A stretch of 24,000 nucleotides of DNA, taken from positions 3,621,774 to 3,645,773 of the forward strand of contig NZ_CP043929.1 of the NCBI RefSeq assembly GCF_008632455.1, given 5' to 3'. The number at the start of each line of letters is the position of its first letter. Within the stretch, counting starts at the first letter, position 1. Position numbers and translations under genes: made by a program. The notes below the pieces were generated by a model, which made no database searches, was not told the origin of the DNA, and saw only the letters and a list, made by a program, of their open reading frames with translations. This DNA is from Methylomonas rhizoryzae (GTDB taxonomy: Bacteria; Pseudomonadota; Gammaproteobacteria; Methylococcales; Methylomonadaceae). Shown in pieces: positions 1 through 20,135 of the stretch.

Positions 1-3000
1 CGGTTTCCGCAGCGCTCAATATGGCATGCGCGGCGATAGGCGCTTGCGGCTGCGCGAGCAGTTGCGTCAGCAGGTTTTGAAACTGCCCGGCCAGACGTTG
101 GATGGTCTCGGCCTCGAACAAGTCGCAGGCATAGGTGAAAAAGCCGCCGAAGCTGTGCGAGCCGTGTTGCCAGGTGTCCAGGCTCAGGTCGAATTGGGCG
201 GCGCCGTTGTCCCGTTCCAGGCTGTCGATCTGCCAATCGCTGCCGGCTTGCAACAGGCTAAGGTCGGTTTGCTGGTGGTTGATCAGGATTTGGAACAAGG
301 GATTTTGCCCCAAGCGCCGTTCGGGTTGCAGGGCATCGACCAGTTGTTCGAACGGCAGGTCCGGATGGGCCTGGGCTTGCAATAGGCTGTGTTTAACCTG
401 TTGCAGCAGTTCGAGGAAGGTGGTCCGGCCGTTCAGGCGGCTGCGCAATACCACGGTGTTGACCAGGTAGCCGATCAGCCCCTGGGTTTCCGGGCGGTTG
501 CGGTTGGCCAGCGGCAGGCCGACGCGCAGGTCGGTTTGGCCGCTGATCCGGTACAGCCAGACGTTGAAGGCGGCCAGCAGCAGCATAAACGGGGTCGCGC
601 CTTGTTGTTTGGCCCGTTCGGCCAGTTGCCCACCCAGTGCTTCGGACAGGGCAAAGCCGACCCGGCCGCCACGCTGGCTGGGTTCGGCCGGCCGCGGCCG
701 GTCGTACGGCAGGACGATTTGCGGCTGTTCGCCGCCCAGCTGTTGCAGCCAGTAAGCCAGTTGCCGTTCGGCTTCGCCGGCTTCCAGCCAATGGCGCTGC
801 CAGCAGGCGAAATCGGCGTGGCGGATCGGCAAGGCCGGCAGTTGCGCAGGCCGGTCGGCGCCCAATCCAGCGTACAGTTCGGCGAATTCGGCCAAGAGCC
901 GGTTCAACGACCAGCCGTCGGCAATCAGATGATGCAGGGTCAAATTCAGTTCGTAGCGGCTGTGCCGACCGGCGTCCGCCAGCTTGACCAGCAGCAGCCG
1001 CCACAACGGGCCGTTCACCAGATCGAACGGCGCCCGCGCCGCCTGTTCGGCCAGTTGCCCGGCTTGCGCCTGCGCCTCGGCCGGCGGCCAAGCGCTCAGG
1101 TCGCGGTAATCCCAGGCGGGGAGCAACCCGGACACGAGACGCTGGCGCGGCTGGCCGTCCCGGGCGTAAAACACGCTGCGCAAGGCGTCGTGGCGCTCGG
1201 CCAGGGCGGCGAAGGCCTGCCGCACTCGCTCGGGCGCCACGTCCCCGGTGATACGCACCCCGCCGGCTATGTGGTAGGCCGCGTTGGACGGGTCCAGTTG
1301 CGCCAAAAACCACAGGCTTTGCTGGCCGCAGGACAGCAACAAGCCGTCGCTTTGCCTCGAATGGTTGATAGGCGATTCAGTCCGGGCCGCATCTACCGAC
1401 AGGCTATCCAAAGCCGCACAGAATTCGCGCAAGCTAGGCCATTCGAAAAACCAGTGTGGCTCGACCCGTACGCCGAATTGCGCGTTCAGGTGGGCAATCG
1501 CTTGCATGAGCGCGATAGACTGGCCGCCGAGCGCAAAGAAATTGTGTTGAGCGCCCACCGCATCAACCCCCAGCACCTCGGCCCAAATGGCGGCGACTTG
1601 CCGCTCCAACGGCGTCAATTCGTCGTCGGCGTTCGGAAGCGTTTGCTCCCCGCTCCGCCACGAAGCATAAGCGTCCAGACTGCCGTCCAGCCAGCCCTGC
1701 CTGCAAGCGCTACGTTGCAATTTGCCGCTGCTGGTTTTAGGGAGCGCACCCGGATTCAACAACAGAATGACGGCCGCCGGCTGCTGACAACACAACGCCA
1801 GTTGTTGGTTAACGGCTTCGATCAGGCTTTCCGCCGGCACCCGCTTTTGCGTGCTGCGGCCGATTTCCGCCGCCACGCCTATGCCTTCGCAGCCGTCTAT
1901 GTTGACCGCAAACGCCGCCACCCGGCCTTGGCGCAGTCCCGCCACCCCATGTTCCAGCGCCAATTCCAGGTCTTGCGGGTAGAGATTTTGGCCGCGAATC
2001 ACGATCAAATCCTTGCAACGCCCGGTGACGTGCAGTCGACCATCTGCCAAAAACCCCAGATCGCCGGTGCGCAGCCAGATTTCGCCGTGCCGCCTGACGA
2101 AAGTTTCCGCCGTTGCCTGCGGATTTTGCCAGTAACCGTGCGTGATGCTCGGCCCTCTCACCCAAATTTCGCCGACCCGGCCGGCCGGCAAAGACTGGCG
2201 GTTATCCGGGTGTATAACGGCTATGCCGTGTTCCGGCTGCGCATGGCCGCAGTCGACCACGGCGTTGGAACCGACGGCAAGCTCCGCCCGGAGTTCGGCC
2301 GGGGCGTGCGCCGCGCGCACCCCTTCTCCCGGCAGCCCGCCGCTGACCAACAGCGATGCTTCCGCCAAGCCGTAGCACGGGTAGAGCGCGCCGGCCGGAA
2401 GACCGGCGGCGGCAAATTTGCCGGCGAAACCGTGCAAGGTGTCCAAGCGTATCGGTTCGGCGCCGCAAAAAGCCAAACGCCAACTATCCAGGCGCAAACC
2501 GGCCAGTTGCGCCTCGCCGATACGCTCGTTGCACAAGCGGTAGGCGAAGTCCGGCCCGCCGCTGACCGTGCCGCCGAACCGCGACAGCGCTTGCAGCCAA
2601 CGTAGCGGCCGTTCCAGAAAATGCCGCGGCGACATCAGCACCAGCGGAATGCCGCTATACAACGGCTGCAGCAAACTGCCGACCAATCCCATGTCGTGGT
2701 ACAAAGGCAACCAGCTGACGAACACGTCGTCGCCGCTGATCCGAAAGCCGTGTTTGATCGCCCGCTGGTTGGCCAACAGGTTGTCGTGACCGACCATCAC
2801 GCCTTTGGGGCTGGCGGTGGAACCGGAGGTATATTGCAAAAATGCCAAGCTATCGGCCGCCAACACCGGCATGCGCCAGTGTTCCGCCCACTCGGTTTCG
2901 ATGGCGTCTACCGCTATCGCGGCGATAGGTTCGCCGCCGCTCAGTGCGTCCAAGACCGGCGCCAACCCCGCCTGCAACGAAGCATTGCTCAGCACGACGC

Positions 3001-3352
3001 GCGGCCCGGCGTCGCGCACGATGGCGGCAACGCGCGCTAGATGCTGCGGGGTTTGCGATTCCGGCGGATAGGCCGGCACGGCGATGACGCCGGCGTACAA
3101 GCAGCCGAACAAGGCACTGACGTAGTCGATGCCGGTGTGCAACAAAATCAGCGCCCGGTCTCCCGGAACGCATCGGCTTTGTAGATAGCCGGCCACGGCG
3201 CGGGCGCGCCGGTCCAAGTCGGCAAAGCTGTAATCGGTAACGGCGCCGTCGCCGTCTGCGATGCAATGTAGCGCCGGACGCTCCGGATGGCGCTCGGCAC
3301 GCTGCTGCATTAAATCGACGAAATGGCGGGCTTGGGCGGGATTGAAACTCAT
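1..3352 (-). CDS. Non-ribosomal peptide synthetase, initiation module (fatty acyl-AMP ligase - carrier domain - condensation domain); 3' end runs off the window
   Basis: Not in the ORF track (no stop inside the window). Hand translation of the minus strand from ATG 3352..3350 stays open for 1117 codons to position 1: MSFNPAQARHFVDLMQQRAERHPERPALH... Adenylate-forming motifs of the FAAL/PvdL-N-terminus type: FLQYTSGSTASPKG (nt 2801-2842), SWLPLYHDMGL, GPDFAYRLC, YGLAEAS, LRTGDLGF, PKTSSGKLQR (nt 1712-1741). Carrier motif FFALGGQSI has its Ser codon at 1517-1519. Condensation motif HHLIADG is at 914-934. The start lies 8 nt after the stop of the upstream dioxygenase gene. Confidence 0.9.
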   Translation of the reverse strand, partial: MSFNPAQARHFVDLMQQRAERHPERPALHCIADGDGAVTDYSFADLDRRARAVAGYLQSRCVPGDRALILLHTGIDYVSALFGCLYAGVIAVPAYPPESQTPQHLARVAAIVRDAGPRVVLSNASLQAGLAPVLDALSGGEPIAAIAVDAIETEWAEHWRMPVLAADSLAFLQYTSGSTASPKGVMVGHDNLLANQRAIKHGFRISGDDVFVSWLPLYHDMGLVGSLLQPLYSGIPLVLMSPRHFLERPLRWLQALSRFGGTVSGGPDFAYRLCNERIGEAQLAGLRLDSWRLAFCGAEPIRLDTLHGFAGKFAAAGLPAGALYPCYGLAEASLLVSGGLPGEGVRAAHAPAELRAELAVGSNAVVDCGHAQPEHGIAVIHPDNRQSLPAGRVGEIWVRGPSITHGYWQNPQATAETFVRRHGEIWLRTGDLGFLADGRLHVTGRCKDLIVIRGQNLYPQDLELALEHGVAGLRQGRVAAFAVNIDGCEGIGVAAEIGRSTQKRVPAESLIEAVNQQLALCCQQPAAVILLLNPGALPKTSSGKLQRSACRQGWLDGSLDAYASWRSGEQTLPNADDELTPLERQVAAIWAEVLGVDAVGAQHNFFALGGQSIALMQAIAHLNAQFGVRVEPHWFFEWPSLREFCAALDSLSVDAARTESPINHSRQSDGLLLSCGQQSLWFLAQLDPSNAAYHIAGGVRITGDVAPERVRQAFAALAERHDALRSVFYARDGQPRQRLVSGLLPAWDYRDLSAWPPAEAQAQAGQLAEQAARAPFDLVNGPLWRLLLVKLADAGRHSRYELNLTLHHLIADGWSLNRLLAEFAELYAGLGADRPAQLPALPIRHADFACWQRHWLEAGEAERQLAYWLQQLGGEQPQIVLPYDRPRPAEPSQRGGRVGFALSEALGGQLAERAKQQGATPFMLLLAAFNVWLYRISGQTDLRVGLPLANRNRPETQGLIGYLVNTVVLRSRLNGRTTFLELLQQVKHSLLQAQAHPDLPFEQLVDALQPERRLGQNPLFQILINHQQTDLSLLQAGSDWQIDSLERDNGAAQFDLSLDTWQHGSHSFGGFFTYACDLFEAETIQRLAGQFQNLLTQLLAQPQAPIAAHAILSAAET

Positions 3353-3360
3353 AGCTTCGA

Positions 3361-4368
3361 TTATGCGGAAAAGGTTTGCGAATAAGGTTCGGCCATGGCG
3401 ACCACGACTTTACGCGGCCCGCGAAACGGGGCGCGGGCGTGGGCCGCCAGCATGTTGTCCAACATCATCACGTCGCCGGTTTGCCAGGGAAAACTGACGG
3501 TCAGCTCGTCCAACACGCCGCGAATTTCCGCCAATACGCCGTCTTCTATCGGGCTGCCGTCGCCGTAATAGGCGTTGCGCGGCAATTCTTCCGGTTCTAG
3601 CACCGCCAGCAGCGCCTCGCGCACGTCCGCTTCCAGATTAGAGACGTGAAACAAATGCGCCTGGTTGAACCATACCCACTCGCCGGTTATCGGGTGGCGG
3701 GCGGTGGCCTGGCAGATTTGCCGGGTACGCAATTCGCCGTCCGCCAGCCATTCGCAGTCGATGACGTGCTCGCGGCAATAGCGCTCCACGACCGCCGGGT
3801 CGTCGCTGTTGAACACCTGGTTCCAAGGCACATCCAAGCCATTGCCGTAATTACGCACGTACATCAAGCCGTGCTTTTCGAAGCGGCGGCGGATGGCCGG
3901 ATCGATGCGACGGTAGATTTGCCGACTGTCGGCAATAGGCGTTTCCCCGCCCTGCTCGGCCACCAACTCGCTGTAAAACCAGATTTTCAGCGGCCATTCG
4001 CGGGTGTAAGCCTGTTCGTTGTGCAAGGGAATAGCTTGGTGGGGCGGGTATTCGGTCGAGGTGTATATACCGGCATCCACTCGGGTGCGCGGCGTGGAGC
4101 CGAATTCGTAACTCAACAGCGGGTGGCCGAAACCGGCGGCAAAGTCTTTGAATTGCGTAATACCGTCGACCGCGAAATCGCGGAACAATAAGCCGCCGCA
4201 TTCGAGCAGCCGCTGCTGCAACAACTCGCCGAACCGAGTGACCACATCTTGCAGCGCCACGCCCGGAATTTCCGGCCGTATAAGCAATGGCAGGAGGCCG
4301 CCCGACGATAAAGGCTCTATGTGCAATGCAACTGTGGCATTCGCTGCCGATGCGATACTCGTAATCAT
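3361..4368 (-). CDS. TauD/SyrP-like Fe(II)/2-oxoglutarate dioxygenase (NRPS-associated amino-acid beta-hydroxylase, e.g. Asp)
   Basis: 336-aa ORF in the track. HxE facial-triad motif AIPLHNEQAY (His codon about 4021-4023) and distal His in DNMLAAHARAPFRG. Overall resemblance to SyrP-type hydroxylases found in siderophore NRPS clusters. The track start at 4371 is TTG; the ATG at 4368 is more likely. Confidence 0.88.
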   Translation of the reverse strand: MITSIASAANATVALHIEPLSSGGLLPLLIRPEIPGVALQDVVTRFGELLQQRLLECGGLLFRDFAVDGITQFKDFAAGFGHPLLSYEFGSTPRTRVDAGIYTSTEYPPHQAIPLHNEQAYTREWPLKIWFYSELVAEQGGETPIADSRQIYRRIDPAIRRRFEKHGLMYVRNYGNGLDVPWNQVFNSDDPAVVERYCREHVIDCEWLADGELRTRQICQATARHPITGEWVWFNQAHLFHVSNLEADVREALLAVLEPEELPRNAYYGDGSPIEDGVLAEIRGVLDELTVSFPWQTGDVMMLDNMLAAHARAPFRGPRKVVVAMAEPYSQTFSA

Positions 4369-4447
4369 CAAAATTACCGTGATCTATGAATTGAAATTCG
4401 TGCGGAGCCAAGCCTGTCCGGCCGTTTCCCGTACTTCAAGACGCCGA

Positions 4448-4531
4448 GGTGTTTGCCCTGGGAAGCGCTTTCGCACCAGGTATAGAGGCAGGGGGAGAAT
4501 TCCTTTTCCATTGCCTCCCAGGACAAACACC
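4448..4531 (-). other. Long-range RNA stem in the intra-operon spacer between the thioesterase and dioxygenase genes
   Basis: Arms ggtgtttgccctggga (4448-4463) and tcccaggacaaacacc (4516-4531). There are 15 Watson-Crick pairs plus one position that is G-U in the minus-strand (sense) RNA but A-C in the plus-strand RNA. The loop is 52 nt. Confidence 0.4.
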
Positions 4532-4574
4532 GCGTCAGCCTGAATGACGCCGATTCGAGGGGCGCTATCGTCCG

Positions 4575-5321
4575 CTAGAGCGGGCCGCTCGCAGCCTGCG
4601 CAAGTTCGCCGCAACATGCGGCTGCCACGCGGTAAGGTTGTAACGTCTGTCCGAAAAAGCGCAAAAGCTCGGACTCGCAAGCGCGCAAAAAGAAATGGTC
4701 TCCGTCGAACATCTGCAACGAACAGCCGCCGCTGCTCTCTTCGCGCCAAGCCAGTAGCGCTTCCTTACTGATCGCATCGAGGCTGCCGCCCAGAACGTAC
4801 AGCGGCATAGCCAACGGCGGGCGCGTCTTTCTGCGGTAGCCGGCGCACAGCGCGAAATCGGCTTTGAGCACCGGCAACAACAAGGCCATCATCTCGGCGT
4901 TAGCCAGAATTTCGCTGTCTGTACCGTTTAAACGCTGCAACTCCCGGCGCAATTCGTTATCGGTTTGCAAATCGGCGTAACGCTCGGTTCGCCGGCACAG
5001 CGGTGCCTCGGCCGCTGACAATATCAACGCGCATGGCTGCGGCCCGCCGCATTCTTGTAAAACATGGGCCAACTCGAATGCAGCTAACGCGCCCAGGCTG
5101 TGGCCGAATAATGCGAACGGCGCCGAAATTGCCGGTATCAGAGTCGCGGACAGCTCGTCCAGCAAAGCCGGCCATTCGCGCTGCAAGTCTTGCTGCCAGC
5201 GCGCGCCGCGCCCCGGCATTTCCACCGGCACGGCCCGCAACCAGTCCGGCAGGCGCTGTTGCCAGCGCAAGTAAACGGCCGCGCTGGCACCGGCATAAGG
5301 CAGGCAAAAAAGCTGCATCAC
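4575..5321 (-). CDS. Type II thioesterase (NRPS editing thioesterase)
   Basis: 248-aa ORF. N-terminal LFCLPYAGASAAVY, nucleophile elbow GHSLGALAAFE, C-terminal GDHFF, all typical of GrsT/PvdG-type TEII. The first codon is GTG (5321); an ATG follows at 5318. It starts 5 nt after the mbtH-like stop. Confidence 0.9.
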   Translation of the reverse strand: MMQLFCLPYAGASAAVYLRWQQRLPDWLRAVPVEMPGRGARWQQDLQREWPALLDELSATLIPAISAPFALFGHSLGALAAFELAHVLQECGGPQPCALILSAAEAPLCRRTERYADLQTDNELRRELQRLNGTDSEILANAEMMALLLPVLKADFALCAGYRRKTRPPLAMPLYVLGGSLDAISKEALLAWREESSGGCSLQMFDGDHFFLRACESELLRFFGQTLQPYRVAAACCGELAQAASGPL

Positions 5322-5325
5322 CGGC

Positions 5326-5538
5326 TTAGCTCTCCTGACCTTCCATGAACTTGCGCAAGCTTAACGGTCGCATGTCGGTCCAAACCTGTTCGATGTACTC
5401 CAGGCAGTCCTTTTTTAGGCCCGATTTGCCGACCGTGCGCCAACCGTTGGGCACCGGCTTGTAGTCCGGCCATATCGAATATTGTTCTTCATGGTTGACC
5501 ACAACCTGAAACACGGTGTCTTCGCTATCGATGCTCAT
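5326..5538 (-). CDS. MbtH-like protein (adenylation-domain chaperone)
   Basis: 70 aa with the full MbtH signature: [10 protein letters not shown]...PNGW...L...WTDMRP. Confidence 0.95.
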
Positions 5539-5545
5539 AAATTCG

Positions 5546-6517
5546 TCAAATACAAAATTGCTCGAAAAATACTTCCCGCGACAACAGCATCATCGCGGCA
5601 CGTTTATGCGGAAAATCGAATTCCTTCAGCTTGCAAAAGCCGGCTTGCTGCATGTAGCCGATCATCTTGGCGTTGTCGGCGCGCGGCTCGGCCACCACGT
5701 TGCGGGTACGCGGATCGTCCAGAAACATGAAATGCGCCAGAGAAGGCAACCAAGCAGCCACCCGCTGCGGGCCTCGCCAACGCTGTTCGCCGACCAGCAT
5801 GTGCACGCCGCGATCGTAATCGTCCGCCGGGTAGTAAGGCGCGATGCGGTCTTCCTTAGCCCAATAAATCTCGAAATAGCCGAAAGGCTGGCCGTCGAAA
5901 CAACCGAATACCGGCTGCATGTGCGGATCGTTAGTCACTTTGTCCAAGTATTCGCGGTGCATGGCTTGGCTGCCGGCCAATTCCCAAAACGCCGATACTC
6001 TAGGGTCGTTATGCCAAGCGTGGAAGGTATCCAAATCGGCATCCAGATCGACACTGCGAAACGACACCCGCAAGTCCTGCTCAGGCAAATAGCGTCGATA
6101 CAGTTCCCCGGCCGGCAACGGCGGGCGCAGCGGATGGCGCTTGCCGTCGCTGACGACGTAATGCAAAGGGAAAGGTTGTTGACGCAGCTGCGGTAAAAAA
6201 CTGTCGGAGAGTTGCCGCAACATGCTGCGCTTGACGGTGACCAGCTCTTCTTGTGAGCCGGCGATGGCGATTCCGCCGCTGATCAAAGCCGCCGCGATGC
6301 CGCGGGCTTGGATCCGCAACACGACTTCCCTGTTAGCCGGCCGCCGGTCGAACCAGGCTTGCAAGGCCGGCAATAACGCGGCCGGGCTACTGTCGCCGGC
6401 CGCTACAACGACGCTGCCGTCTGCGGTTTCGCACAGACTTGACTGAGGCTGCCGATCGCTATCGGCAGCGTACAAATCGATTTGCAGATTGTCGTAACAG
6501 GTTTGAGAGAGTGTCAT
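5546..6517 (-). CDS. IucB/AlcB-family N-hydroxy-amine acetyltransferase (siderophore hydroxamate formation)
   Basis: 323 aa, about IucB length. Motifs [61 protein letters not shown]. First gene behind a Fur-box promoter. Confidence 0.85.
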
Positions 6518-6570
6518 AGCGCTGGTTACACCTTGGAAACAGTCAGGTTAGCGGATTAAAAAGTTATGCG

Positions 6571-6600
6571 AATAATAACGATTCTCATTTAATATGTCAA
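6571..6600 (-). promoter_or_regulatory. Sigma70-type promoter with overlapping Fur box (acetyltransferase-to-NRPS operon)
   Basis: The minus strand reads TTGACA (6600-6595), a 17-nt spacer, then TATTAT (6577-6572). The Fur-like box aaatgagaatcgttattatt (6590-6571) covers the spacer and -10 element. It lies about 55 nt upstream of the start at 6517. Confidence 0.7.
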
Positions 6601-6660
6601 CCAAACAATTGCTTTCCTCGTCGCGCCGCTCGCCCGTTACCCGCTTCATGCAGCTCGGCC

Positions 6661-7998
6661 CTATCCGACTTTATATATCTTCGCCGCCAGCCCGGAGGTT
6701 TCCGCTCCGGCATTTTCGGCAGCTTGCCCGCCGACCCAGCGCATCGGCGCCGGAAAAGGATCGACCTTGTAAACCGGCCTATCCAGCAAACTGTTGATGA
6801 TTACCGCGGAACGCCAAGCCGCCAAGCTTAGCTGGGCGTCGGCTACGCCGTGGCTGTTGCGGCCGGCGTTCAGCATGTAGATGCGATGCCGGGCCGGGCC
6901 GTCCCAAGGCAATCGATAGTCCTCGCTCAAACGCGGCAGCCCCTCCCGGTCCAAGTCCAATCGTTCCAGCAACGGGGCAAGACAATCCGGTAATTGGTAG
7001 CGGTAACCGGTCGCCAGCACGATGCGATCGACGGTTACCGACTCGTCGCTGCGATTGAAACCGTTGCGCATATGCAAGTGGTAAGCGCCTTTGTCTCGGC
7101 CGGCCAGATGCACTTCCCGATACGGCAAAATCGCATACGGCGTGGTGTCGCGATTCAAGAAATCGCCGTCGTACAAATATTGCGACAGGACTTGCAAGGT
7201 GGCCGGGGACACGCCGTCGCCGGTCAGCTTGTGCGAGGCGACAATCGGCAACTTGCGCGCTTCCGGCAAGGCATGAAACTGGCGCACGTAGTCCGGGGTG
7301 AAATATTCGTTGGTGAAGGCGGTTTCATCCAACGGTTCCAAATTAGGCCGGCGACTGATCCAGACGATCTCCTCGGCCTTGCCGCGGTTGCCGGCCATCA
7401 AATCCAGAAATATCTCCGCCCCGCTTTGCCCGCCGCCGATAATCGCCACCCGCTTGCCGGCTACCGAAAAGTCCGAACCGACGTATCCGTGACTATGCAG
7501 ACAATACTCGCCGACGTAGCGCTCTATCCAGGTGGGAAGGTGCGGGCGCATGCCGGTCGCTACCGCCAAGTGCCGAGCCGCAAGCTCTTTACCGCTTTCG
7601 CAGCGCAAGCGGAAACCGCCGTCGCTAAACCGGATGTGTTCGATGCCGTCGCCGAATTGCAAGCAGGGCAATTGCTCGGCAGCCCAGCGCAAATAATCGG
7701 CAAATTCCAGCCGCCGCACCCTGGGGTAATCGGCATTGACAAAACGGTAAAACCGGCCTTTTTGTACCAGATAGGCCAAAAAACTATAGGGATTGCTAGG
7801 GTCTATCGGGGTTACCAAGTCTTTTAAATACGAGGTCTGCATTTGCGTACCCGGCAGCATCATGCCGGGATGCCAGTTGAAACGCTCGCGGCGCTCGAAG
7901 AAGCGCGCCCGGCAGTCCGGCACTTTAGCCAGCAAGGCCGCCAAACTGAGATTAAAAGGCCCGACGCCGATACCGGCCAGATCAAGAATGTCGCTCAT
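6661..7998 (-). CDS. Lysine/ornithine (or diamine) N-hydroxylase, flavin-dependent (IucD/PvdA/AlcA family)
   Basis: 445 aa. GIGVGPFNLSLAALL (FAD fold), FNWHPGMMLPGTQMQTSYLKDLVTPIDPSNPYSFLAYL, GGGQSGAE (NADPH fold), LATGY, and C-terminal HGVADAQLSLAAWRSA. By recollection it aligns nearly end-to-end with E. coli IucD. Confidence 0.9.
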   Translation of the reverse strand: MSDILDLAGIGVGPFNLSLAALLAKVPDCRARFFERRERFNWHPGMMLPGTQMQTSYLKDLVTPIDPSNPYSFLAYLVQKGRFYRFVNADYPRVRRLEFADYLRWAAEQLPCLQFGDGIEHIRFSDGGFRLRCESGKELAARHLAVATGMRPHLPTWIERYVGEYCLHSHGYVGSDFSVAGKRVAIIGGGQSGAEIFLDLMAGNRGKAEEIVWISRRPNLEPLDETAFTNEYFTPDYVRQFHALPEARKLPIVASHKLTGDGVSPATLQVLSQYLYDGDFLNRDTTPYAILPYREVHLAGRDKGAYHLHMRNGFNRSDESVTVDRIVLATGYRYQLPDCLAPLLERLDLDREGLPRLSEDYRLPWDGPARHRIYMLNAGRNSHGVADAQLSLAAWRSAVIINSLLDRPVYKVDPFPAPMRWVGGQAAENAGAETSGLAAKIYKVG

Positions 7999-12395: not shown

Positions 12396-12905
12396 CCTGT
12401 TTTGTTCAGCACACTGAAGCCTCAATTGATTTCGGGACTATTTCCCCATTGGGTTTAAAGAATCCAACCCTTTGTAACGCTTTATGAAATCCAAATCTCG
12501 CCTATGCAATGTAATCTAAAGTTTCCTACAAATTCCTCAAGCCATCATGCCAAGCAACACGGCGAACAGAGGATTTTCGGGAGTGGCCGGGTCTGGGGCA
12601 GCTTTTCATTACTATGAACGTCATGGTGAGGGGACACATAGCCGCTATTCGCAAGGCCATCATCGCGACTATGCGTCGCTCCTACCAAGCTAGCTTCATT
12701 TACCGGAGCGATTGTCAGGTCTTCATGATCGTTAGTTGGGGTGATAACCATACATGCCCATTATCCCCCCGAGTAATGCGGAATCGCCTAGCAGACGCAG
12801 TAAAAAACGCTGTACATACAATCACTAGCGCCTGCTTTTAATCAGCCTGACCTAGTCTGAGTTAGGCTTGCAAACCGCCTGAACTTACGAGCAGGAAAAT
12901 TTTGG

Positions 12906-12941
12906 TTGCTTTTTTTAATTGAGAATGATTATCATTTGAAA
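12906..12941 (+). promoter_or_regulatory. Fur box with candidate promoter for the small-ORF/ABC-exporter unit
   Basis: gagaatgattatcatt (12921-12936) matches GATAATGATAATCATT at 14 of 16 positions. Possible -35 ttgctt (12906-12911) and -10 tatcat (12930-12935) with an 18-nt spacer. It lies 33 nt upstream of ATG 12969. Confidence 0.68.
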
Positions 12942-12968: not shown

Positions 12969-13181
12969 ATGAAAATGTTTTCATCACTTTTTAAAGCACC
13001 CGCCACGGTAAAACTGGAAATCGAGCCGCGCTACTTGGCCGTACTGATTGCAAACGGCCAACTGCATGCTACCGATTTCCGCTGTCTGGACCTAAATTCC
13101 AAGCAAATCGTTTGGAAACTGCTGCTGACGCTTGCCAAGGCTAAGCTGAACGGCAACGACAGACTCGCGGAAAGCGGCTAG
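12969..13181 (+). CDS. Small hypothetical protein (70 aa)
   Basis: The track ORF 12906..13181 starts at TTG inside the Fur box. The first ATG is 12969 (MKMFSSLFKAPATVKLEIEPRYLAVLIANGQLHATDFRCLDLNSK...). Third-position GC is about 60% by my count, above the local average. The SD is weak. No family recognised. Confidence 0.5.
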   Translation: MKMFSSLFKAPATVKLEIEPRYLAVLIANGQLHATDFRCLDLNSKQIVWKLLLTLAKAKLNGNDRLAESG

Positions 13182-13228
13182 ACAGCGGCCCGATCAAACG
13201 CGTCCATCCATATCCCGGAGATTAATCC

Positions 13229-13450
13229 ATGTCGAAAAAACCTTGTACTCACGAATACTTAGCCACTAACGAGAGCGGTAAAGTATTGATTTGCCGCGAA
13301 TGCGGAGTAGTTCATCTGCATCTGCACAATATGTCCTTGCGCCTGGACGAACAGCAATTCGCCAGTTTTGCCGCGTTGATGAATCAAGCGGCGCGCAACG
13401 TCGCCGACAACGCCATGGCTAAACGCCCCAGCCTGACTTTAGTGCATTAA
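13229..13450 (+). CDS. Small hypothetical protein (73 aa) with a C-x-H...C-x-x-C zinc-ribbon-like N-terminus
   Basis: GGAG lies 8 nt upstream of the ATG. Sequence MSKKPCTHEYLATNESGKVLICRECGVVHLHLHNMSLRLDEQQFASFAAL... The stop is 8 nt before the exporter ATG, so the two are probably co-translated. Third-position GC is about 59%. Confidence 0.62.
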   Translation: MSKKPCTHEYLATNESGKVLICRECGVVHLHLHNMSLRLDEQQFASFAALMNQAARNVADNAMAKRPSLTLVH

Positions 13451-13458
13451 TTCAGATT

Positions 13459-15126
13459 ATGACGCTGCTGCGTTTATTGTTTAACCGCTTCAAAACCACT
13501 TTATTACTGGCGATTCTGTTAAGCCTGGCCAGTGCCGGGCTTTCGGTGGCGGTTATCGCGTTCAGCAACGAACGCTTGCTACAAACAACGGGTGACTTGC
13601 AAACCACGCTATTACAGTTTTCTGGCTTGCTGGCAGCTGTTTTGATCATTGGCACCGCCTCGCAAATCTGCATGACCAAACTTGGCCATCGCTTGGTGTA
13701 CGAAATGCGCCGCACCATGGTCAAGCGTATTTTGGATACGGAATTGCAGCGCCTGGAGTGGCTAGGCCCCGCCCGCTTGTTAGCCAGCTTGAACGGCGAT
13801 ACCAACCGCTTGACCTCCGCCTTTATCGGCCTACCTTCGGCACTGTACGGTTTGGCGCTGAATCTGGGCAGTTTTGCTTACCTGGCCTGGCTATCGCCGC
13901 GGCTATTCGCCGCAGTAGCCGGCTGGATGGCTGTCGGCGTGGCGATAGCCTGGTTGCTGCTTAACCGCACCCATCAACACATAGCGGCGGCCCGCTACGT
14001 CGAAGACCTGTTATACGAGGACTATCAAGCCGCACTCTACGGCCGCAAGGAATTGGCCTTAAACCGCGACCGGGCAAAACGCTTCTATAACGACGAATTC
14101 GAAACCAACGCCCAAACCAGCCGCAACTGCGAAATTCGGGCGGACATTTACAACGCGTGCAACGAAAACTGGGCCAACGCCATGATATTAGGTGCCATAG
14201 GCTTGGTATTTTATTTGGTCAACGCCCTGGCCTGGGAAACATCCGCCGTTGCCACCACCTACGCCGTGACGATTTTATTCTTGCGCACGCCCTTGACCGG
14301 TTTGATCGCCGCCATTCCCGGCTTAATCGGCGGCAGCGTGGCGCTGGCGAAATTGGACAGCCTGGAACTCCCCTGCTACAACCCTAAGTTTTCCGTTGCG
14401 CAAACCGCCGCAACCGCAACGTGGCGGACGCTGACGTTAAAAAACGTCGAATACCGCTACCCCGCTCTTGAAAACGGCAACCCGTTTTCGGTGGGGCCTA
14501 TCGACTTCGAACTGCGGCGCGGTGAACTCGTGTTTCTGATCGGCGGCAACGGTAGCGGAAAAACCACGTTCAGCCGCTTGCTGACCGGACTGTACCGTCC
14601 GCAAAACGGGCAATTGCTGCTAGACGGCCACCCGCTGACCGAAGCCCATCGTCCCGCTTACCGCAGTCTGTTCTCCAGCGTGTTTTCCGACTTTTATTTG
14701 TTTTCGCGCTTGCTGGGCCCGAATGGAGCCGATGCCGATCCGGAGCAAATCCGTTTTTGGCTAAACCAATTCGGTTTGGCGGACAAGGTAACCGTTGAAG
14801 ACAGTAAACTATCGGATACTAACTTGTCGCAAGGCCAACGCAAGCGTTTGGCGCTGATAGCCGCACTATTGGAAGACCGGCCCGTGTTGGTGTTGGACGA
14901 ATGGGCGGCCGATCAAGACCCGGAATATAGGCGCCGCTTTTACAGCGAGTGGTTGCCGCTATTGAAAGCCAGCGGTAAAACCGTGCTTGCCATTACCCAC
15001 GACGAACATTATTTTTCCGTCGCCGACCGCATTGTGAAAATGGACGAAGGCCGCATCCACGCGCTAGAGACACGGCAGGGCCCGGTTTTTCCGGTTAGTC
15101 GATATTCGGTTTCGGATTGGCCGTAA
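13459..15126 (+). CDS. Cyclic-peptide/siderophore ABC exporter, fused TMD-NBD half-transporter (PvdE/SyrD family)
   Basis: 555 aa. N-terminal TM domain. Walker A GGNGSGKTT (nt 14542-14568), signature LSQGQRKRLAL, and Walker B VLVLDEWAADQDPEYRR. The DEWAADQDP form is characteristic of the PvdE/SyrD cyclic-peptide transporter family. Confidence 0.9.
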   Translation: MTLLRLLFNRFKTTLLLAILLSLASAGLSVAVIAFSNERLLQTTGDLQTTLLQFSGLLAAVLIIGTASQICMTKLGHRLVYEMRRTMVKRILDTELQRLEWLGPARLLASLNGDTNRLTSAFIGLPSALYGLALNLGSFAYLAWLSPRLFAAVAGWMAVGVAIAWLLLNRTHQHIAAARYVEDLLYEDYQAALYGRKELALNRDRAKRFYNDEFETNAQTSRNCEIRADIYNACNENWANAMILGAIGLVFYLVNALAWETSAVATTYAVTILFLRTPLTGLIAAIPGLIGGSVALAKLDSLELPCYNPKFSVAQTAATATWRTLTLKNVEYRYPALENGNPFSVGPIDFELRRGELVFLIGGNGSGKTTFSRLLTGLYRPQNGQLLLDGHPLTEAHRPAYRSLFSSVFSDFYLFSRLLGPNGADADPEQIRFWLNQFGLADKVTVEDSKLSDTNLSQGQRKRLALIAALLEDRPVLVLDEWAADQDPEYRRRFYSEWLPLLKASGKTVLAITHDEHYFSVADRIVKMDEGRIHALETRQGPVFPVSRYSVSDWP

Positions 15127-15234
15127 ATCCCCCGGAAATAAAGGAAGCGGGAAAATTTCAAACGCCATGCTTATCGAACCATAGCCGGCTAGCGCTTAAG
15201 CCCCTCTCTGTGTCCCACTTAAAACGGGCAGCCG

Positions 15235-15711
15235 CTATCGGTTCGCTTGCAGGCGTTGCCGCAATGCCGCAAGCGAAGCTAAAGCTCTAACATCGCCGGC
15301 GACGTCCTCGACTTTAAACAACTTCAGTCCATAGCCGGCGTTCGGCCTATTTGAAAGGCGAACGATAGTTAAGCGGTAAAACAGTTCTTCATAGTAATGC
15401 AACGCCAGCTCGGTTGGCGATACCGGCCAATGCGCGTTCAACAAGAAAGACTGGTTAGGCACGATTAAGCGCTTACTCGCCAAAGCTTCGAAACGCGTCC
15501 CCAGCAGCAGGAATTCGTTCGATTCTTCGAACGGACAATCGTAAGAAGTAATCAACAAATAACCGGCATCGCATTGATATTGGGCTTCGATGAAATAGCC
15601 CGGTAGCGACACCCCGGTATCCAAGCCGGCAAAATACAAACGGCTCGTACTCGGCCAGGTTTGGTATGGGCCAGGATGATTTTCCAAGCTGAAGTGATCA
15701 ATCGGATGCAT
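15235..15711 (-). CDS. Hypothetical protein (158 aa), no recognisable family
   Basis: The only long ORF in a lower-GC stretch, convergent with the exporter. No signal peptide or TM segment. Sequence looks globular (MHPIDHFSLENHPGPYQTWP...YFIEAQYQCDAGYLLITSYDCPFEE...). Confidence 0.6.
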   Translation of the reverse strand: MHPIDHFSLENHPGPYQTWPSTSRLYFAGLDTGVSLPGYFIEAQYQCDAGYLLITSYDCPFEESNEFLLLGTRFEALASKRLIVPNQSFLLNAHWPVSPTELALHYYEELFYRLTIVRLSNRPNAGYGLKLFKVEDVAGDVRALASLAALRQRLQANR

Positions 15712-16407
15712 CGGAAACTCTATGGCTTAAGAGGCCGCCGGCTCAAGCCGATTTTCTAACGGCCTTAATTATGCCGCTACACGCAAATCCGTGCAGCCGG
15801 CAGCCTGATCTTGACGGCAATACGTTGCACATCCGCTCTCTCCCAATCGAATAGAGGCCGGACAAGAATCTAACGCCTAAACAAATCTTTTTTCAACCAT
15901 TACTTTCCGAAATTGCGTTTGCAAATTGATCGTCAACCCAAACCTGCGGTCATTCGATTCGGTTCCAGCGGTTCGGATCCAGTTAAAAATTAAATTTCCC
16001 GGTTGAAAACAGACTAATTCGCCCACCCGGATAGACGGCGGGCATTGACGCACCGAATGCGGGTTAGCCGAAGCAATTACCCATTTTCCGGGATCAAGAT
16101 TGGCCACTCATACGACAAACGGGTTTTATTGCACCGGTATTTTGCATTCATTGCGTTGGTCGCGAAGCGGAAGATGCCATTCTTTGAAATCGATCGGCAG
16201 CTCCAATAACGGGCCGGTCGCGCAAAATTTCACGCTGCCGTCTTGGCTGAGGTACAGACTACCTTTTAACTTGGCTGCCAGTTGATAGTTGGAACAAACG
16301 GAATTATCCATAAAACCCTCGAAACGCTTGGATCGGCGCTCACTTTGCGAAATTCGACTTAAACCGAACTTAAGCCCGCCGCTTGCGGTTTTGCCCCATG
16401 CCCCGAG

Positions 16408-17583
16408 TCAGGAGCGGCGCGTTGCCGATCTCCCGCTCTTATGCCACCATATCCTGAAACCGGTCACGACCAGCACGGCAATGGCCAAGCCCAGCACGGA
16501 TACCGCCACGCGCCCCGGTAAGCCGGCTATCCGCCCGCTGTGCAAGGGCAATTGCCAAGCGTCGAAAATGTCGGCGGCCGTACCTTGGCCCGGCAAATAG
16601 TCGTCCAAGTATGCGGCAGTTTGGCCGTCGTAATACAGATAATCCGCCCCTAAGCCGTCGGCATCGCCGTATCCGACCCCGAAAATGCCGTATTGGGCGT
16701 TATAAAACACGCTGGAGCGCTGCTTGGTCCAGTGCCGCGCGTCGGCCTCTATTTGCGCCCGATCCAAGACCATGACGAAAGATACCGCAGCTTCGACCGG
16801 CTCCGCCTCGGCCCGGTCGTCGCGCGCATCGAACGGGCTAGGGGTAAAATCGCTAAACAGGCCGACTAGCGGCTCGAACAAGGCATCCCGCAAATTCAGC
16901 GAAATCGCCGAAACCGACAGGATCAGCAAAAACCCGGAAAGCCATAAGCCGCCGGCCCTATGTAGATCGAAATTCAAGCGTTTGCCTCGTGCGCCGGGTT
17001 TAATCCGCCAAGCGGTGCGCCAAGATTGCCGGCTGGCCCCGGCCTCCCGGCGGACTAGCGCTAAGGCCGTTTGCGGTAAGCTCAGATAAAAACCGATCAG
17101 GGTTTCCAGCAGCACGATCACCGCTACTATACCCATCACCCACAAGCCGATCTCGCCCGGCAATTGCAAGCTGTAGTGCAGCACGTAAACGCATGGGATC
17201 AGCTGCTTGCGTTCCAAGCCGCACGCCCCCCATATTCGCCCGCCCAACACTTTGCCGTCTACCGGATCGACGAACACCTCGTCATACGCCGCCGGCATGT
17301 CGGCTTGCGTAGGCCTCAGGGTAATTTTCGCCGCGCGGCCGGCGACGCGTTGCAGTGGTAACGACACCACACGGTATTCGGGTAGCTCGCGCTGCAAGGC
17401 GGACAGCAGTTGCGCGTCGGTTAGCGCCGCGCCCTGAGCGGAGCTATAAAACAGCTCGGGGTTCAGCCACGCGTCCAATTCCTGCTGGTAGGCGATGATG
17501 CACCCGGTCAAACTGGCTTGCAACAAAAACAAGGCGGCGGTCAAGCCAAGATAGCGGTGTAAGCGCGCCCAAAGCTTTCGCAT
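16408..17583 (-). CDS. PepSY-associated TM-helix protein (PiuB/FoxB-like putative ferric-siderophore reductase)
   Basis: 391 aa. N-terminal RLHRYLGLTAALFLLQASLTG. Three further His-containing TM motifs: VLHYSLQLPG, FDLHRAGGLW, LPLHSGRIAGLPGR. C-terminal TGFRIWWHK. It starts 16 nt after the receptor stop. Confidence 0.85.
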   Translation of the reverse strand: MRKLWARLHRYLGLTAALFLLQASLTGCIIAYQQELDAWLNPELFYSSAQGAALTDAQLLSALQRELPEYRVVSLPLQRVAGRAAKITLRPTQADMPAAYDEVFVDPVDGKVLGGRIWGACGLERKQLIPCVYVLHYSLQLPGEIGLWVMGIVAVIVLLETLIGFYLSLPQTALALVRREAGASRQSWRTAWRIKPGARGKRLNFDLHRAGGLWLSGFLLILSVSAISLNLRDALFEPLVGLFSDFTPSPFDARDDRAEAEPVEAAVSFVMVLDRAQIEADARHWTKQRSSVFYNAQYGIFGVGYGDADGLGADYLYYDGQTAAYLDDYLPGQGTAADIFDAWQLPLHSGRIAGLPGRVAVSVLGLAIAVLVVTGFRIWWHKSGRSATRRS

Positions 17584-17598
17584 GGCGGGACTTCGCGC

Positions 17599-19914
17599 CT
17601 ACCAGTTGTAGCGCAAACTGGCCAGTACGGTGCGGCGGTTGCCGTAAAAACAATTACCGCCGTAACAGGTAGTGAAATACTCGTGATCGAGCAGATTGGC
17701 CATATTCACCCCTAAACGCAAGCCGTTCAATTTGCTGTGCAACTTGCCTAATTCATAGTGCACGGCCGCATCCACCACCACGTAAGACGGCGTTTTCAAA
17801 CTGTTGGCCAAATCGCCGTAGTTGCCGCCCGCGTAACGCAACCCACCGCCCAAACCCAAGCCTGCGAAATCGCCTTGCCGTTGCGTGTAATCGAGCCATA
17901 ACCCGGCTTGATGCTCCGGTGTATAAGTCAAATTGTTGCCTAATTCGGAGGCAATCGTGGATTTGGTTACTTTGGTATCGGTATAGGTATAGGATGCGGC
18001 TACGTCCAAACCGACATCCAGACTGGCCTTGCCCTCCAATTCCGCCCCTTGCGAACGCACCTCGCCGGTTTGAATGTTATAACCTACATGCGAAGGCTCA
18101 GGATCGGCGGTTAACACATTTTGCTGGACTAAATGAAACAGCGCTGCCGTAAATAAGGCGTTATATCCGACCGGTTGATACTTGACGCCGAATTCATGCT
18201 GTTGCCCCGTTGTGGGTTTGAAAGCCTTGCCGAAAAAATCGCTATCGGCAATCGGATCGAACGATTCCGAATAACTGTAGTAAGGCACGACGCCCGCGTC
18301 GAACTGGTAGCCCAGTCCGGTCCGGTAGGTGAAGGCTTCGTCGTCGCGCGACGGATCGATCAGGCCATCGTTACCGGTTTGGGTGGTCGCCCAATCGTGG
18401 CGAATACCGATAGTCGCAATCCAACGATTCCATTTAAGCTGGTCTTGTGCGTACAGCCCGACTTGGTCCAGTTGCTGACTTCTGGATGAGTCCAACACGG
18501 GTTCCTGAAACGCATTGCCGTAGGTCGGGTTATAAACATCCAACACCAGTTCGGGCAATTCAAAATCGGTAAAGCCTTGCTTTCTATCGCCGGTAAAATG
18601 CCTGAAATCCAAACCGACCAAGCCTACGTGTTCAACATCGCCGGTGGCAAAATCGGCTTGTAACTGATTATCCAGCGTAAAAGTATGGGTCTGGTCCTTG
18701 TAGCGCGCGCCGTACCGGTTAATCTTGGTCATTTGCGCATCCACGAAGCTAAGGCCGGGAATAAGCTCGCCCTTGTCGGCATCAAAGCCGTAGTAATAAT
18801 CCGGGAAAATACCGCGGTAATCGCTGCTGACATTGGCGTAACGCACATTCTGCCGCGCCGTGAAAATGTGGTTGAAGCGATGATCCAACCCATAGCCCAC
18901 CGCAAACTGCTCGCGTTCATAACCGTCGAATCCGGGCTCACCCAGAAAGCGGTTGCTCGGAATGCGGCCGTTGGGGTTGGCCAACACCGTGCCTTCATAG
19001 GGCAAAAACTGCATCGCGTTGCCGGTTTCGTCTTTTTGATAGTGGCTCAAAAAGGTAAAACTGGTCGCGTCGCTCGGCTTCCAGGTAAAACTGGGCGCGA
19101 CGTAGTAACGGTTGTCTTCCACGAAATCGACCTGGGTATCGGCGTTGCGGCCCATCGCTACCAAGCGGTAAAACAAATCGTTTCGGCTCGCCACCGGCCC
19201 GCTTAAATCCAGGCTGCCTTGCACCCTGTCGTAACTGCCGCCCAGAAACTGGATTTCATGAAACGGGGTTTCGGTAGGCCGTTTGCTCATCATATTGACC
19301 AAGCCGCCCGGCGGATTTTGCCCGTACAACACCGAAGACGGTCCGCGCAGGATTTCGATCCGCTCCAAGCCGTAAGGATCGACCCGCAATTGCGCATACG
19401 AAGAACTGGAACTCATCAAGCGGGTACCGTCCAGGTACTGGGTACCTTCGAAACCGCGCAGAATAAAATAGTCGTCGCGGGTACTAGGGCCGAAAAGCCC
19501 CGTCACCACGCCGGGCGTATAAGCCACCGCCTCGCTAACGCTTTGCGCCGCGCGGGCAACGAATTCGTCCCTGTTGACCGCGCTAATCGACTGCGGCACT
19601 TCGATCAGCGGCGTATCGGTTTTAGAACCCGACGCCGATTGTTCCACGACATAACCTTTTACCGGTGCCGCCGCGCTGCCGGCGTTTTCACCGACCACCG
19701 CCACCTCGGGCAAGGTTTGCGCGCTGCCAACTGCAAGCTCGCGGCGTTTATCGGTTTGCGACTTGGCCGGCCGGGCATTGTTATCAGCCGCCGTTTGCTC
19801 TTGAGCGCTTAATTCCAGCGGCGCGAGCACCAATGCCAACGCGATGGCCGCCGCTTTACCAAAACCTGACCGGACACGAGTCCGCGCTCGCGCATGTACC
19901 ATTCGTTTAGTCAT
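17599..19914 (-). CDS. TonB-dependent siderophore outer-membrane receptor
   Basis: Signal peptide ...AAAIALALVLAPLELSA|QEQ. Plug start LPEVAVVGE...KTDTPLIEVPQSISAV, then IEILRGPSSVLYG. Terminal beta-strand ...VLASLRYNW ends in an aromatic residue. No roughly 80-aa N-terminal signalling extension. The track start 19941 is TTG. The ATG at 19914 has an AGGTGA SD 5 nt upstream. Confidence 0.92.
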   Translation of the reverse strand: MTKRMVHARARTRVRSGFGKAAAIALALVLAPLELSAQEQTAADNNARPAKSQTDKRRELAVGSAQTLPEVAVVGENAGSAAAPVKGYVVEQSASGSKTDTPLIEVPQSISAVNRDEFVARAAQSVSEAVAYTPGVVTGLFGPSTRDDYFILRGFEGTQYLDGTRLMSSSSSYAQLRVDPYGLERIEILRGPSSVLYGQNPPGGLVNMMSKRPTETPFHEIQFLGGSYDRVQGSLDLSGPVASRNDLFYRLVAMGRNADTQVDFVEDNRYYVAPSFTWKPSDATSFTFLSHYQKDETGNAMQFLPYEGTVLANPNGRIPSNRFLGEPGFDGYEREQFAVGYGLDHRFNHIFTARQNVRYANVSSDYRGIFPDYYYGFDADKGELIPGLSFVDAQMTKINRYGARYKDQTHTFTLDNQLQADFATGDVEHVGLVGLDFRHFTGDRKQGFTDFELPELVLDVYNPTYGNAFQEPVLDSSRSQQLDQVGLYAQDQLKWNRWIATIGIRHDWATTQTGNDGLIDPSRDDEAFTYRTGLGYQFDAGVVPYYSYSESFDPIADSDFFGKAFKPTTGQQHEFGVKYQPVGYNALFTAALFHLVQQNVLTADPEPSHVGYNIQTGEVRSQGAELEGKASLDVGLDVAASYTYTDTKVTKSTIASELGNNLTYTPEHQAGLWLDYTQRQGDFAGLGLGGGLRYAGGNYGDLANSLKTPSYVVVDAAVHYELGKLHSKLNGLRLGVNMANLLDHEYFTTCYGGNCFYGNRRTVLASLRYNW

Positions 19915-19944
19915 TGCTTCACCTGCAAATTTGAGTTGCAAGCG

Positions 19945-19975
19945 ATATTACTATGAATAATAACGATTCTCAATT
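19945..19975 (-). promoter_or_regulatory. Sigma70-type promoter with Fur box (receptor/PepSY operon)
   Basis: The minus strand reads TTGAGA (19973-19968), a 17-nt spacer, then TAATAT (19950-19945). The Fur-like box aattgagaatcgttattattc (19975-19955) overlaps the -35 element and spacer. It shares the identical 18-mer gaataataacgattctca with the 6571 box. Confidence 0.7.
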
Positions 19976-20135
19976 ATGTTTTTATCTTATTCGACTCCCT
20001 AGCCTTTCCCCTCCGGTTAATCCGGCCTGTTCGGAAACGCCGCTAAACGCGTTACCATAAGCAGCACTCGCATAGCCGCCGGACACAATCTCTATCCCCC
20101 TTAAGCATCAGACACCTCACCGCCAGCGATTCGTT

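Follow-up and report, generated by a model that had tools for sequence, protein, structure and literature searches.

Delipidation of siderophores that are acylated, or primed by a fatty-acyl-AMP ligase (FAAL), has precedents in the acylases PvdQ, BntA/MhtA and PdnM (PMC13592322). Because delipidation by BntA/MhtA and PdnM is documented outside Pseudomonas (PMC13592322), a scheme in which a peptide is acylated, exported and deacylated is already known. Among methanotrophs, in which iron supply limits methane oxidation, alphaproteobacterial species make methylocystabactin, a catecholate siderophore with a linked cluster (PMC12435222) and the only such methanotroph case in the literature searched. 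Here we analyze a stretch of 24,000 nucleotides from Methylomonas rhizoryzae (the window) and conclude, with a probability that we put at about 0.65, that it carries part of a Fur-repressed non-ribosomal peptide synthetase (NRPS) siderophore locus. The product would be a peptide that bears a fatty-acyl group at its N-terminus and binds iron through hydroxamate and beta-hydroxy-aspartate; it would be exported, relieved of its acyl chain and taken up again.

An initial annotation made from the letters alone had recognized an NRPS that starts with FAAL, carrier (T) and condensation (C) domains, three tailoring enzymes, an exporter, an acylase and a receptor with a PepSY-TM protein, and profile searches located all of these gene types (Table 1). 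The minus-strand genes are transcribed in the order P-domain protein, 256-amino-acid (aa) protein, acylase, IucD, IucB, MbtH, thioesterase (TE), TauD, NRPS. Divergent from this biosynthetic group, a 70-aa open reading frame (ORF), a DUF6686 protein and the ABC exporter occupy 12969-15126 of the plus strand; to the right of the exporter, a 158-aa ORF, the PepSY_TM protein and the TonB-dependent receptor follow on the minus strand. MbtH, the type II thioesterase, two secreted proteins, two small ORFs and the 158-aa ORF come in addition to the genes annotated initially. The absences reported then also hold, as the window ORFs scanned include no PvdM/N/O/P-type protein, periplasmic binding protein, ABC importer or extracytoplasmic function (ECF) sigma/anti-sigma pair.

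Nine window proteins have exact matches (WP_150050256 to WP_150050278), and an exact-sequence look-up found several of them to be identical in Methylomonas sp. HYX-M1. The gene order is matched on CP160405.1 of that strain and on one JGI metagenome contig of a Methylomonas relative. Related clusters occur in Methylomicrobium album BG8, Methylosarcina fibrata and Methylomagnum ishizawai, so that with Methylomonas the core acylase-IucD-MbtH-TE-TauD-FAAL-NRPS is syntenic in four methanotroph genera, each of which also has an N-acyl- or formyltransferase gene. In the literature searched, no characterized cluster or product was found for this family, nor any characterized biosynthetic gene cluster that matches it gene for gene.

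Pfam places AMP-binding (residues 16-408), PP-binding (585-648) and Condensation (671-1116) domains at the NRPS N-terminus. FAAL models score best for the first domain, which aligns to positions 11-654 of the 4334 of PRK05691. The FAAL-T-C start is thus confirmed as an initiation module of the PvdL type, 47-50% identical to Pseudomonas synthetases. Modules past the window were read in the near-identical sister strain HYX-M1, not in M. rhizoryzae (cluster proteins 97-100% identical; 5.4 kb more sequence); the contig of the JGI relative stops within the FAAL domain. In HYX-M1, FAAL-T-C is followed by A1-T-E-C-A2, with A for adenylation and E for epimerization domains. At 8 of its 10 positions the A1 specificity code, DAEACGGITK, agrees with DGEACGGVTK, one of the codes given in a survey of 2025 for modified ornithine, N-delta-hydroxylated or acylated (PMC12283262). 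As far as A2 can be seen, its code positions 1-3 read D-L-T, and C2-A2 shares 48% identity with module 2 of a related metagenome-assembled genome, whose code ends in KIGHVGK and whose A4 region reads D-L..T. The full A2 code is DLTKIGHVGK, which we take to be an aspartate code, in both M. fibrata (FAAL-T-C 70% identical to that of the window) and M. ishizawai, whose architecture is that of HYX-M1.

These codes support a modified-ornithine (hydroxamate) assignment for A1 and an Asp-type assignment for A2, and the product is predicted to start as fatty-acyl-D-(N5-acetyl-N5-hydroxy)Orn-(beta-hydroxy)Asp, in agreement with the N-acetyl-N-hydroxy and beta-hydroxy-Asp ligands proposed initially. Given the A1 and A2 codes, the NRPS continuation of HYX-M1 and the relatives does contain hydroxamate and Asp modules and does not have the Glu-Tyr-Dab (Dab, diaminobutyrate) start of pyoverdine; with DAEACGGITK and D-L-T in place of Glu, D-Tyr and Dab modules, the HYX-M1 enzyme is not a PvdL orthologue. 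The Methylomagnum cluster comprises eight modules, read as D-modified-Orn, Asp, Ser, D residue, Ser, D residue, D-modified-Orn and a last residue, and then a TE domain. A metagenome scan with the distal NRPS part gave no match above 45% identity, and a contig scan with the C domain returned just fragments from close relatives and unrelated NRPS loci. In a protein search with the NRPS, a full-length synthetase was not among the matches, none of which was longer than ~1900 aa.

The tailoring genes fit these modules. The IucD-like hydroxylase and IucB-like acetyltransferase of the initial annotation match PF13434 and PF13523 and, with the modified-ornithine A domain, complete a hydroxamate-forming set in which the IucB-type enzyme would, judging by its family, acetylate N5-hydroxy-ornithine. 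The third tailoring enzyme, named SyrP-like and matching PF02668, is a stand-alone Fe(II)/2-oxoglutarate enzyme of the TauD fold beside an NRPS with an Asp module, and in each of the four genera its gene immediately precedes that of the NRPS; it is a candidate Asp beta-hydroxylase. In M. album BG8, a formyltransferase and a histone-deacetylase-family gene replace the IucB-type acetyltransferase (14029-17718 of its extracted stretch), which suggests that its product carries N-formyl hydroxamates. The M. album cluster also contains a small copper-binding-domain protein and a DUF6607 protein.

Is the locus controlled by iron? We scanned for Fur boxes with a 19-bp consensus, counting matches out of 19 and using composition-preserving local shuffles as background. 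Four sites were found where four Fur-box promoters had been proposed, three of them coinciding with the region's three best sigma-70-like promoters. Shuffled sequences gave ~1.6 sites of at least 13/19 per window and zero at 15/19. The 19953 and 6568 sites share the core AATAATAACGATTCTCA, and the two sites of the divergent region (12348 and 12915) do not vary among the three Methylomonas sequences, in contrast to the diverging centre of the region. Equivalently placed Fur-box-like sites exist in three relatives: (i) M. album BG8 has a 16/19 site at the place of the exporter-operon box; (ii) a site precedes the acetyltransferase gene on the JGI contig and in Methylomagnum (17/19 in the latter), and the replacing formyltransferase gene in M. 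album; and (iii) M. album and Methylomagnum have counterparts of the 12348 box. Because the boxes overlap promoters and their positions are conserved, Fur control, and with it regulation by iron, is a well-supported prediction.

A PrrF-like, Fur-repressed small RNA (sRNA) at 12341-12486 (+) was also considered and is probably not an sRNA, as it scored 22.8 bits against an Rfam gathering score of 90. The Fur-box part of the model drives most of the match, and the intergenic centre is poorly conserved; no convincing terminator or promoter was found in the stretch.

The exporter, with permease and ATPase fused, scores 423.3 bits against TIGR01194 (cyclic peptide export; cut-off 286.2), which we take to be the subfamily of PvdE and SyrD. 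It also exceeds the cut-off of NF007813 (685.5 bits against 604), the model from which NCBI names the protein (YojI-type). The 70-aa and DUF6686 ORFs stand between the Fur box and the exporter gene. The DUF6686 protein, which has Cys and His residues, ends 9 bases ahead of the exporter gene, and M. album and M. fibrata have ~60% identical counterparts ahead of their exporter genes; the 70-aa ORF has at most a weak counterpart in M. album. Export of a lasso peptide or microcin, which the YojI-type name and the small ORFs might have indicated, was rejected, since maturation enzymes are missing and the neighbors are NRPS siderophore genes.

Which enzyme would remove the acyl chain? The acylase matches profile positions 1-674 of the 675 of PF01804 with residues 73-813 of its 825, and residue 275, the Ser of G|SNNW, falls on residue 1 of the beta chain when several solved acylases are aligned to it; it is hence a penicillin-amidase-family N-terminal nucleophile (Ntn) hydrolase. 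A hydrophobic segment at about residues 13-35 is consistent with a signal anchor and a membrane-anchored or exported enzyme. The initial annotation had called it PvdQ-family, which stands at the level of PF01804 and fails at the level of orthology: against the PvdQ equivalog model NF051460 it scores 70.5 bits (cut-off 950), with residues 273-482 alone matching, and in a comparison with Protein Data Bank structures PvdQ matched over only ~112 residues (E values 1e-10 to 1e-16). The best solved relative is D-succinylase 7EBY (8e-86), followed by glutaryl-7-aminocephalosporanic acid acylase 4HSR/4HST (~1e-51), each over the whole length. The superfamily has been divided into penicillin G, cephalosporin and type-B acyl-homoserine lactone (AHL) acylases on one side and the lipopeptide acylases PvdQ, BntA/MhtA, Tem25 and AAC on the other, with PdnM forming a further separate clade (PMC13592322, 2026). 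The solved relatives, in place of a tree, put the window acylase on the penicillin/cephalosporin-acylase side, a branch other than that of PvdQ.

Acylase homologues ~57-61% identical occupy the equivalent position in M. album, M. fibrata and Methylomagnum, and one 49% identical is found in an NRPS cluster of Sorangium sp. So ce385 (CP150337.1). Its neighbors there are a 6320-aa NRPS, a receptor, a 38% identical ABC exporter, MbtH, an aminotransferase and a PepSY_TM gene, so that this acylase type is paired with NRPS siderophore-like clusters beyond methanotrophs. The Fur-box operon, the synteny in four genera and the Sorangium homologue tie the enzyme to the siderophore and make it a candidate acylase of a siderophore precursor, which, judging by synteny and gene content, would remove the acyl chain. 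N-acyl-D-amino acids are the substrates of the nearest solved enzyme, and the substrate predicted here is acylated on a D residue, which may be coincidence.

The proposed uptake by a non-signalling receptor and a PepSY-TM protein is supported. The receptor consists of Plug and barrel alone, without the STN domain of a signalling transducer, and no sigma or anti-sigma gene was found in the window. Among structures it is closest to 3QLB (FetA; 1.5e-176), then FhuA (~1e-151) and FoxA (~1e-146), with FpvA far behind (~1e-21). The PepSY_TM protein resembles the FoxB structure 7ABW over its full length (E value 3e-77; residues 1-383 against 1-374), and the His-containing motifs LHRY, DLHRAGG and P(L/I)H(S/G)GRI are aligned between the two; it is a putative reductase of the FoxB type. 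FoxB and FpvG are inner-membrane reductases that act in the periplasm to release the iron of ferric siderophores. Periplasmic reduction probably releases the iron here too, which would explain a system without a binding protein and siderophore ABC importer.

How would the siderophore be made and used? The IucD-like hydroxylase and IucB-like acetyltransferase would convert ornithine to N5-acetyl-N5-hydroxy-ornithine. FAAL-T-C would activate a fatty acid of presumptive identity and length and join it to the alpha-amine of this residue, which the E domain would then turn into the D form; module 2 would add aspartate, beta-hydroxylated by the stand-alone SyrP-like TauD enzyme. More modules would be encoded left of the window, and MbtH and the type II thioesterase would help the assembly line. 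The ABC exporter would carry the lipopeptide to the periplasm, where the acylase, membrane-anchored with its catalytic domain periplasmic, would most likely strip off the fatty acid. The ferric complex would re-enter through the FhuA/FoxA-group receptor, and the FoxB-type PepSY_TM reductase would free its iron in the periplasm.

Several points weigh against this reading, and some of them favor other explanations. The A-domain codes come from the sister strain and relatives, with A1 called from an 8/10 code match, and peptide length, release mode and further ligands lie in the NRPS part left of the window. The HYX-M1 NRPS carries a one-base frameshift inside its E domain (~17740-17760 of the extracted CP160405.1 stretch), where no NRPS gene is annotated, as if the cluster were decaying or silent in this lineage. 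The shift marks either a pseudogene or a homopolymer assembly error, and may be the latter, as it adjoins a run of five C, typical of such errors; with the other genes intact and highly conserved and the window's 1117 NRPS codons open, decay is improbable. The acylase appears to lie outside the PvdQ/BntA branch that holds the known siderophore acylases, its nearest solved relatives being D-succinylase and beta-lactam acylases. Because a 47% identical homologue is found among fatty-acid-metabolism genes, in a context unrelated to siderophores, its clade as a whole is not siderophore-dedicated. An enzyme that degrades AHLs or hydrolyzes N-acyl-D-amino acids, and merely sits in the operon, would nevertheless hardly keep a fixed place in a Fur-box operon in four genera and recur in the siderophore-like cluster of Sorangium, and we regard this explanation as very improbable. 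A stronger challenge, unlikely in our view but deserving serious attention, is that the fatty acid is kept, giving an amphiphilic lipopeptide siderophore like marinobactin or amphibactin, with the acylase working late, partially, or on recaptured siderophore in tailoring or recycling. FAAL priming and an acylase that is membrane-anchored and not clearly soluble would suit such a product. Marinobacter carries BntA/MhtA and is still known for acylated marinobactins (PMC13592322). Acylated forms accumulate in it despite the acylase, so that the gene alone is no proof of a transient chain. The place of the acylase gene in the Fur-box operon of IucD, kept in four genera, would fit a fixed maturation step of the pvdQ kind.

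The siderophore served by the receptor is less certain, and it is quite possible, if still the less probable case, that the receptor and the FoxB-like protein (16408-19914) form a separate module that takes up hydroxamate siderophores of other organisms, for example ferrioxamine or ferrichrome. The nearest solved relatives are FetA, FhuA, FoxA and FoxB, the pair has a Fur-box promoter of its own, the unrelated 158-aa ORF separates it from the exporter, and neither the available flanks of the M. album cluster nor the Methylomagnum plasmid stretch contain it. However, the predicted product is itself of the hydroxamate type, pair and cluster are neighbors in each of the three Methylomonas sequences and the window has no second receptor, all of which favor a receptor that would serve the cluster's own product. 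A fluorescent siderophore like pyoverdine or azotobactin, with its chromophore-maturation genes elsewhere in the genome, is suggested by the PvdL-like FAAL-T-C start and its identity to Pseudomonas synthetases and by an exporter of the PvdE subfamily, and M. album BG8, bearer of a related cluster, reportedly produces a fluorescent siderophore. But an E domain comes after A1, whose code is of the modified-ornithine type, A2 has an Asp-type code and not one for Tyr, the complete Methylomagnum cluster is without Tyr or Dab codes and PvdM/N/O/P-type genes, and the receptor is distant from FpvA. Judged by the A-domain codes and by where the E domain stands, a pyoverdine-type chromophore was rejected, and this explanation is largely refuted.

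The first two proteins of the acylase operon are secreted. Apart from a signal peptide, the 305-aa protein consists of one P/Homo-B domain that includes a long insert; many invariant acidic residues and one Cys pair stand out in its family alignment. The named ones among its closest homologues (E values <1e-60) are all from methanotrophs, and the gene lies within the cluster in four genera (M. album stretch 8920-9918, L169 1992-2963, Methylomagnum stretch 47007-47867). A structure model (predicted local distance difference test score 84) gave weak fold matches, to the P-domains of furin, Kex2 and the Aeromonas protease ASP alone. Roles as an acylase partner or as a binder in the periplasm are guesses. 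The 256-aa protein belongs to a rare family (70 representatives) whose alignment ends in VPxPAAxWL...RRR, a PEP-CTERM-like sorting signal; its gene, between those of the P-domain protein and the acylase, is in the cluster of Methylomonas only.

The Methylomagnum cluster, which is fully annotated, is carried by plasmid pRS11DPr1 (274 kb) beside an integrase gene and several transposase genes, and its TE domain is followed by RND efflux genes, the 305-aa homologue and a phosphopantetheinyl transferase. In the window, the biosynthetic half (1-11000) has a GC content of 58-65%, against 47-58% elsewhere. The plasmid context and the GC shift hint at horizontal movement of the cluster among methanotrophs. 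A bolder reading, which we consider doubtful, is that of a mobile Methylococcales siderophore system with a new periplasmic maturation module, in which an acylase of the penicillin/cephalosporin/D-succinylase side and the secreted P-domain protein would strip the fatty acid off a D-hydroxamate residue; its product might also mobilize further metals on which methane oxidation depends, for example copper or lanthanides.

Further features adjoin the locus. The 158-aa and 61-aa ORFs stand between the exporter and the PepSY_TM gene. Divergent from the receptor gene, a TPR-repeat gene with a C-terminal 2-oxoglutarate (2OG)-Fe(II) oxygenase domain (PF13759) lies at 20136-21734 (+) and may respond to iron too, as it has the intergenic region with the Fur box in common with the receptor gene. 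About 350 bases past it is a ribosomal RNA (rRNA) operon, with 5S rRNA at 22088-22203 (-) and the 3' half of 23S rRNA at 22448-24000 (-).

Table 1. Genes and predicted Fur sites of the siderophore locus, in window coordinates
Feature	Position	Strand	Evidence and remarks
NRPS 5' part (FAAL-T-C)	3352->1	-	Pfam; first 1117 codons, gene runs on past position 1
TauD-family dioxygenase	3361-4368	-	PF02668, E value 8e-48
Type II thioesterase (NRPS editing enzyme)	4575-5318	-	PF00975, E value 6e-44
MbtH-like NRPS accessory protein	5326-5538	-	PF03621, E value 2.7e-24; annotated gene in HYX-M1
IucB-type N-acyltransferase	5546-6517	-	PF13523, E value 7.8e-60
IucD/PvdA-type flavin N-hydroxylase (Lys/Orn N-monooxygenase)	6661-7998	-	PF13434, E value 2.5e-105; exact protein WP_150050258.1
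Ntn acylase, penicillin-amidase family, 825 aa	8050-10461	-	PF01804, E value 1.3e-221
Secreted 256-aa protein, PEP-CTERM-like tail	10487-11257	-	Weak matches to XDP1 and VPLPA-CTERM models
Secreted 305-aa P/Homo-B-domain protein, first gene of operon	11339-12256	-	PF01483
70-aa ORF, first gene of exporter operon	12969-13181	+	Annotated gene in HYX-M1 and JGI contig
73-aa DUF6686 protein	13229-13450	+	PF20391, E value 1e-6
Fused permease-ATPase ABC exporter	13459-15126	+	TIGR01194, NF007813
158-aa protein	15235-15711	-	No family match or signal peptide; kept in Methylomonas relatives
61-aa ORF	16126-16311	-	No family match; kept in Methylomonas relatives
FoxB-type PepSY_TM inner-membrane protein	16408-17583	-	PF03929, E value 5e-60
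TonB-dependent receptor, FetA/FhuA/FoxA group	17599-19914	-	Plug (112-213) and barrel; TIGR01783 above cut-off
Fur box and sigma-70-like promoter, IucB-MbtH-TE genes	box 6568-6592 (feature 6568-6600)	-	13/19; TTGACA-17-TATTAT, 11/12
Fur box and sigma-70-like promoter, operon of 305-aa protein, 256-aa protein, acylase and IucD	box 12348-12378 (feature 12348-12395)	-	15/19; TTGACA-17-CAAAAT
Fur box upstream of exporter operon	12915-12939	+	15/19
Fur box and sigma-70-like promoter, receptor/PepSY_TM genes	box 19953-19977 (feature 19945-19977)	-	12/19; TTGAGA-17-TAATAT
Weaker Fur-box-like site over TauD start codon	4354-4384	.	13/19; also in HYX-M1 and JGI contig; significance uncertain

The locus offers a testable candidate for an NRPS siderophore of gammaproteobacterial methanotrophs, present in four genera and plasmid-borne in one. 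It leaves the general understanding of siderophore systems unchanged; its novelty lies in the group of hosts, the peptide itself, the branch of the acylase and the conserved P-domain protein, an unstudied partner. If the proposed pathway is right, the scheme of acylation, export and deacylation extends to an acylase branch not tied to siderophores before.

How does the locus compare with known systems? With pyoverdine of Pseudomonas it shares the PvdL-profile FAAL-T-C start, a TIGR01194 exporter, an exported Ntn acylase, an ornithine N-hydroxylase, MbtH and Fur-type regulation. Unlike pyoverdine clusters, it is without Glu-Tyr-Dab modules, PvdM/N/O/P and an ECF sigma factor, its acylase fails the PvdQ model, and its receptor is not FpvA-like and is without a signalling domain. 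The FoxA/FoxB system of Pseudomonas aeruginosa likewise has a receptor of the same group and, side by side with it, the FoxB to which the window protein is homologous over its full length, whereas the window pair is without the sigma/anti-sigma proteins FoxI/FoxR and the receptor signalling domain, and adjoins a biosynthetic cluster.

The ornibactin and malleobactin peptides of Burkholderia start with N5-hydroxy-acyl-Orn, beta-hydroxy-Asp and Ser, and the Methylomagnum relative reads modified-Orn, Asp, Ser. Ornibactin genes likewise encode a TauD-like enzyme, MbtH, a PvdA-type hydroxylase, IucB-type acyltransferases and a TIGR01194-type exporter. Ornibactin differs in that its acyl group is on N5, with neither FAAL start nor acylase, and in its use of an ECF sigma factor and an ABC importer, neither of which is in the window. 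Pandorachelin of Pandoraea is, like the product predicted here, a FAAL-primed NRPS siderophore, and is delipidated in the periplasm by a cluster-encoded Ntn acylase, PdnM (PMC13592322). PdnM differs by its own clade, a HemS-like C-terminal domain and the diazeniumdiolate ligands of its siderophore (PMC13592322); because the Penicil_amidase match nearly fills the window acylase, that enzyme has no room for an extra C-terminal domain.

Marinobactins, aquachelins and amphibactins share with the predicted product an N-terminal fatty acid, N-acetyl-N-hydroxy-ornithine and beta-hydroxy-Asp, and have a siderophore-associated Ntn acylase (PMC13592322). The Marinobacter acylases BntA/MhtA group with PvdQ (PMC13592322), whereas the window acylase is nearer to penicillin G acylase, cephalosporin acylase and D-succinylase. 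The likeness to marine acyl-peptidic siderophores drawn by the initial annotation holds for the predicted chemistry alone, the host being a methanotroph. A D-hydroxamate-ornithine followed by Asp is not known from marinobactins, aquachelins or amphibactins. Overall, the inferred logic of acylation, export and deacylation resembles that of pyoverdine, and the predicted chemistry that of marinobactin and aquachelin, built on a peptide core like that of ornibactin.

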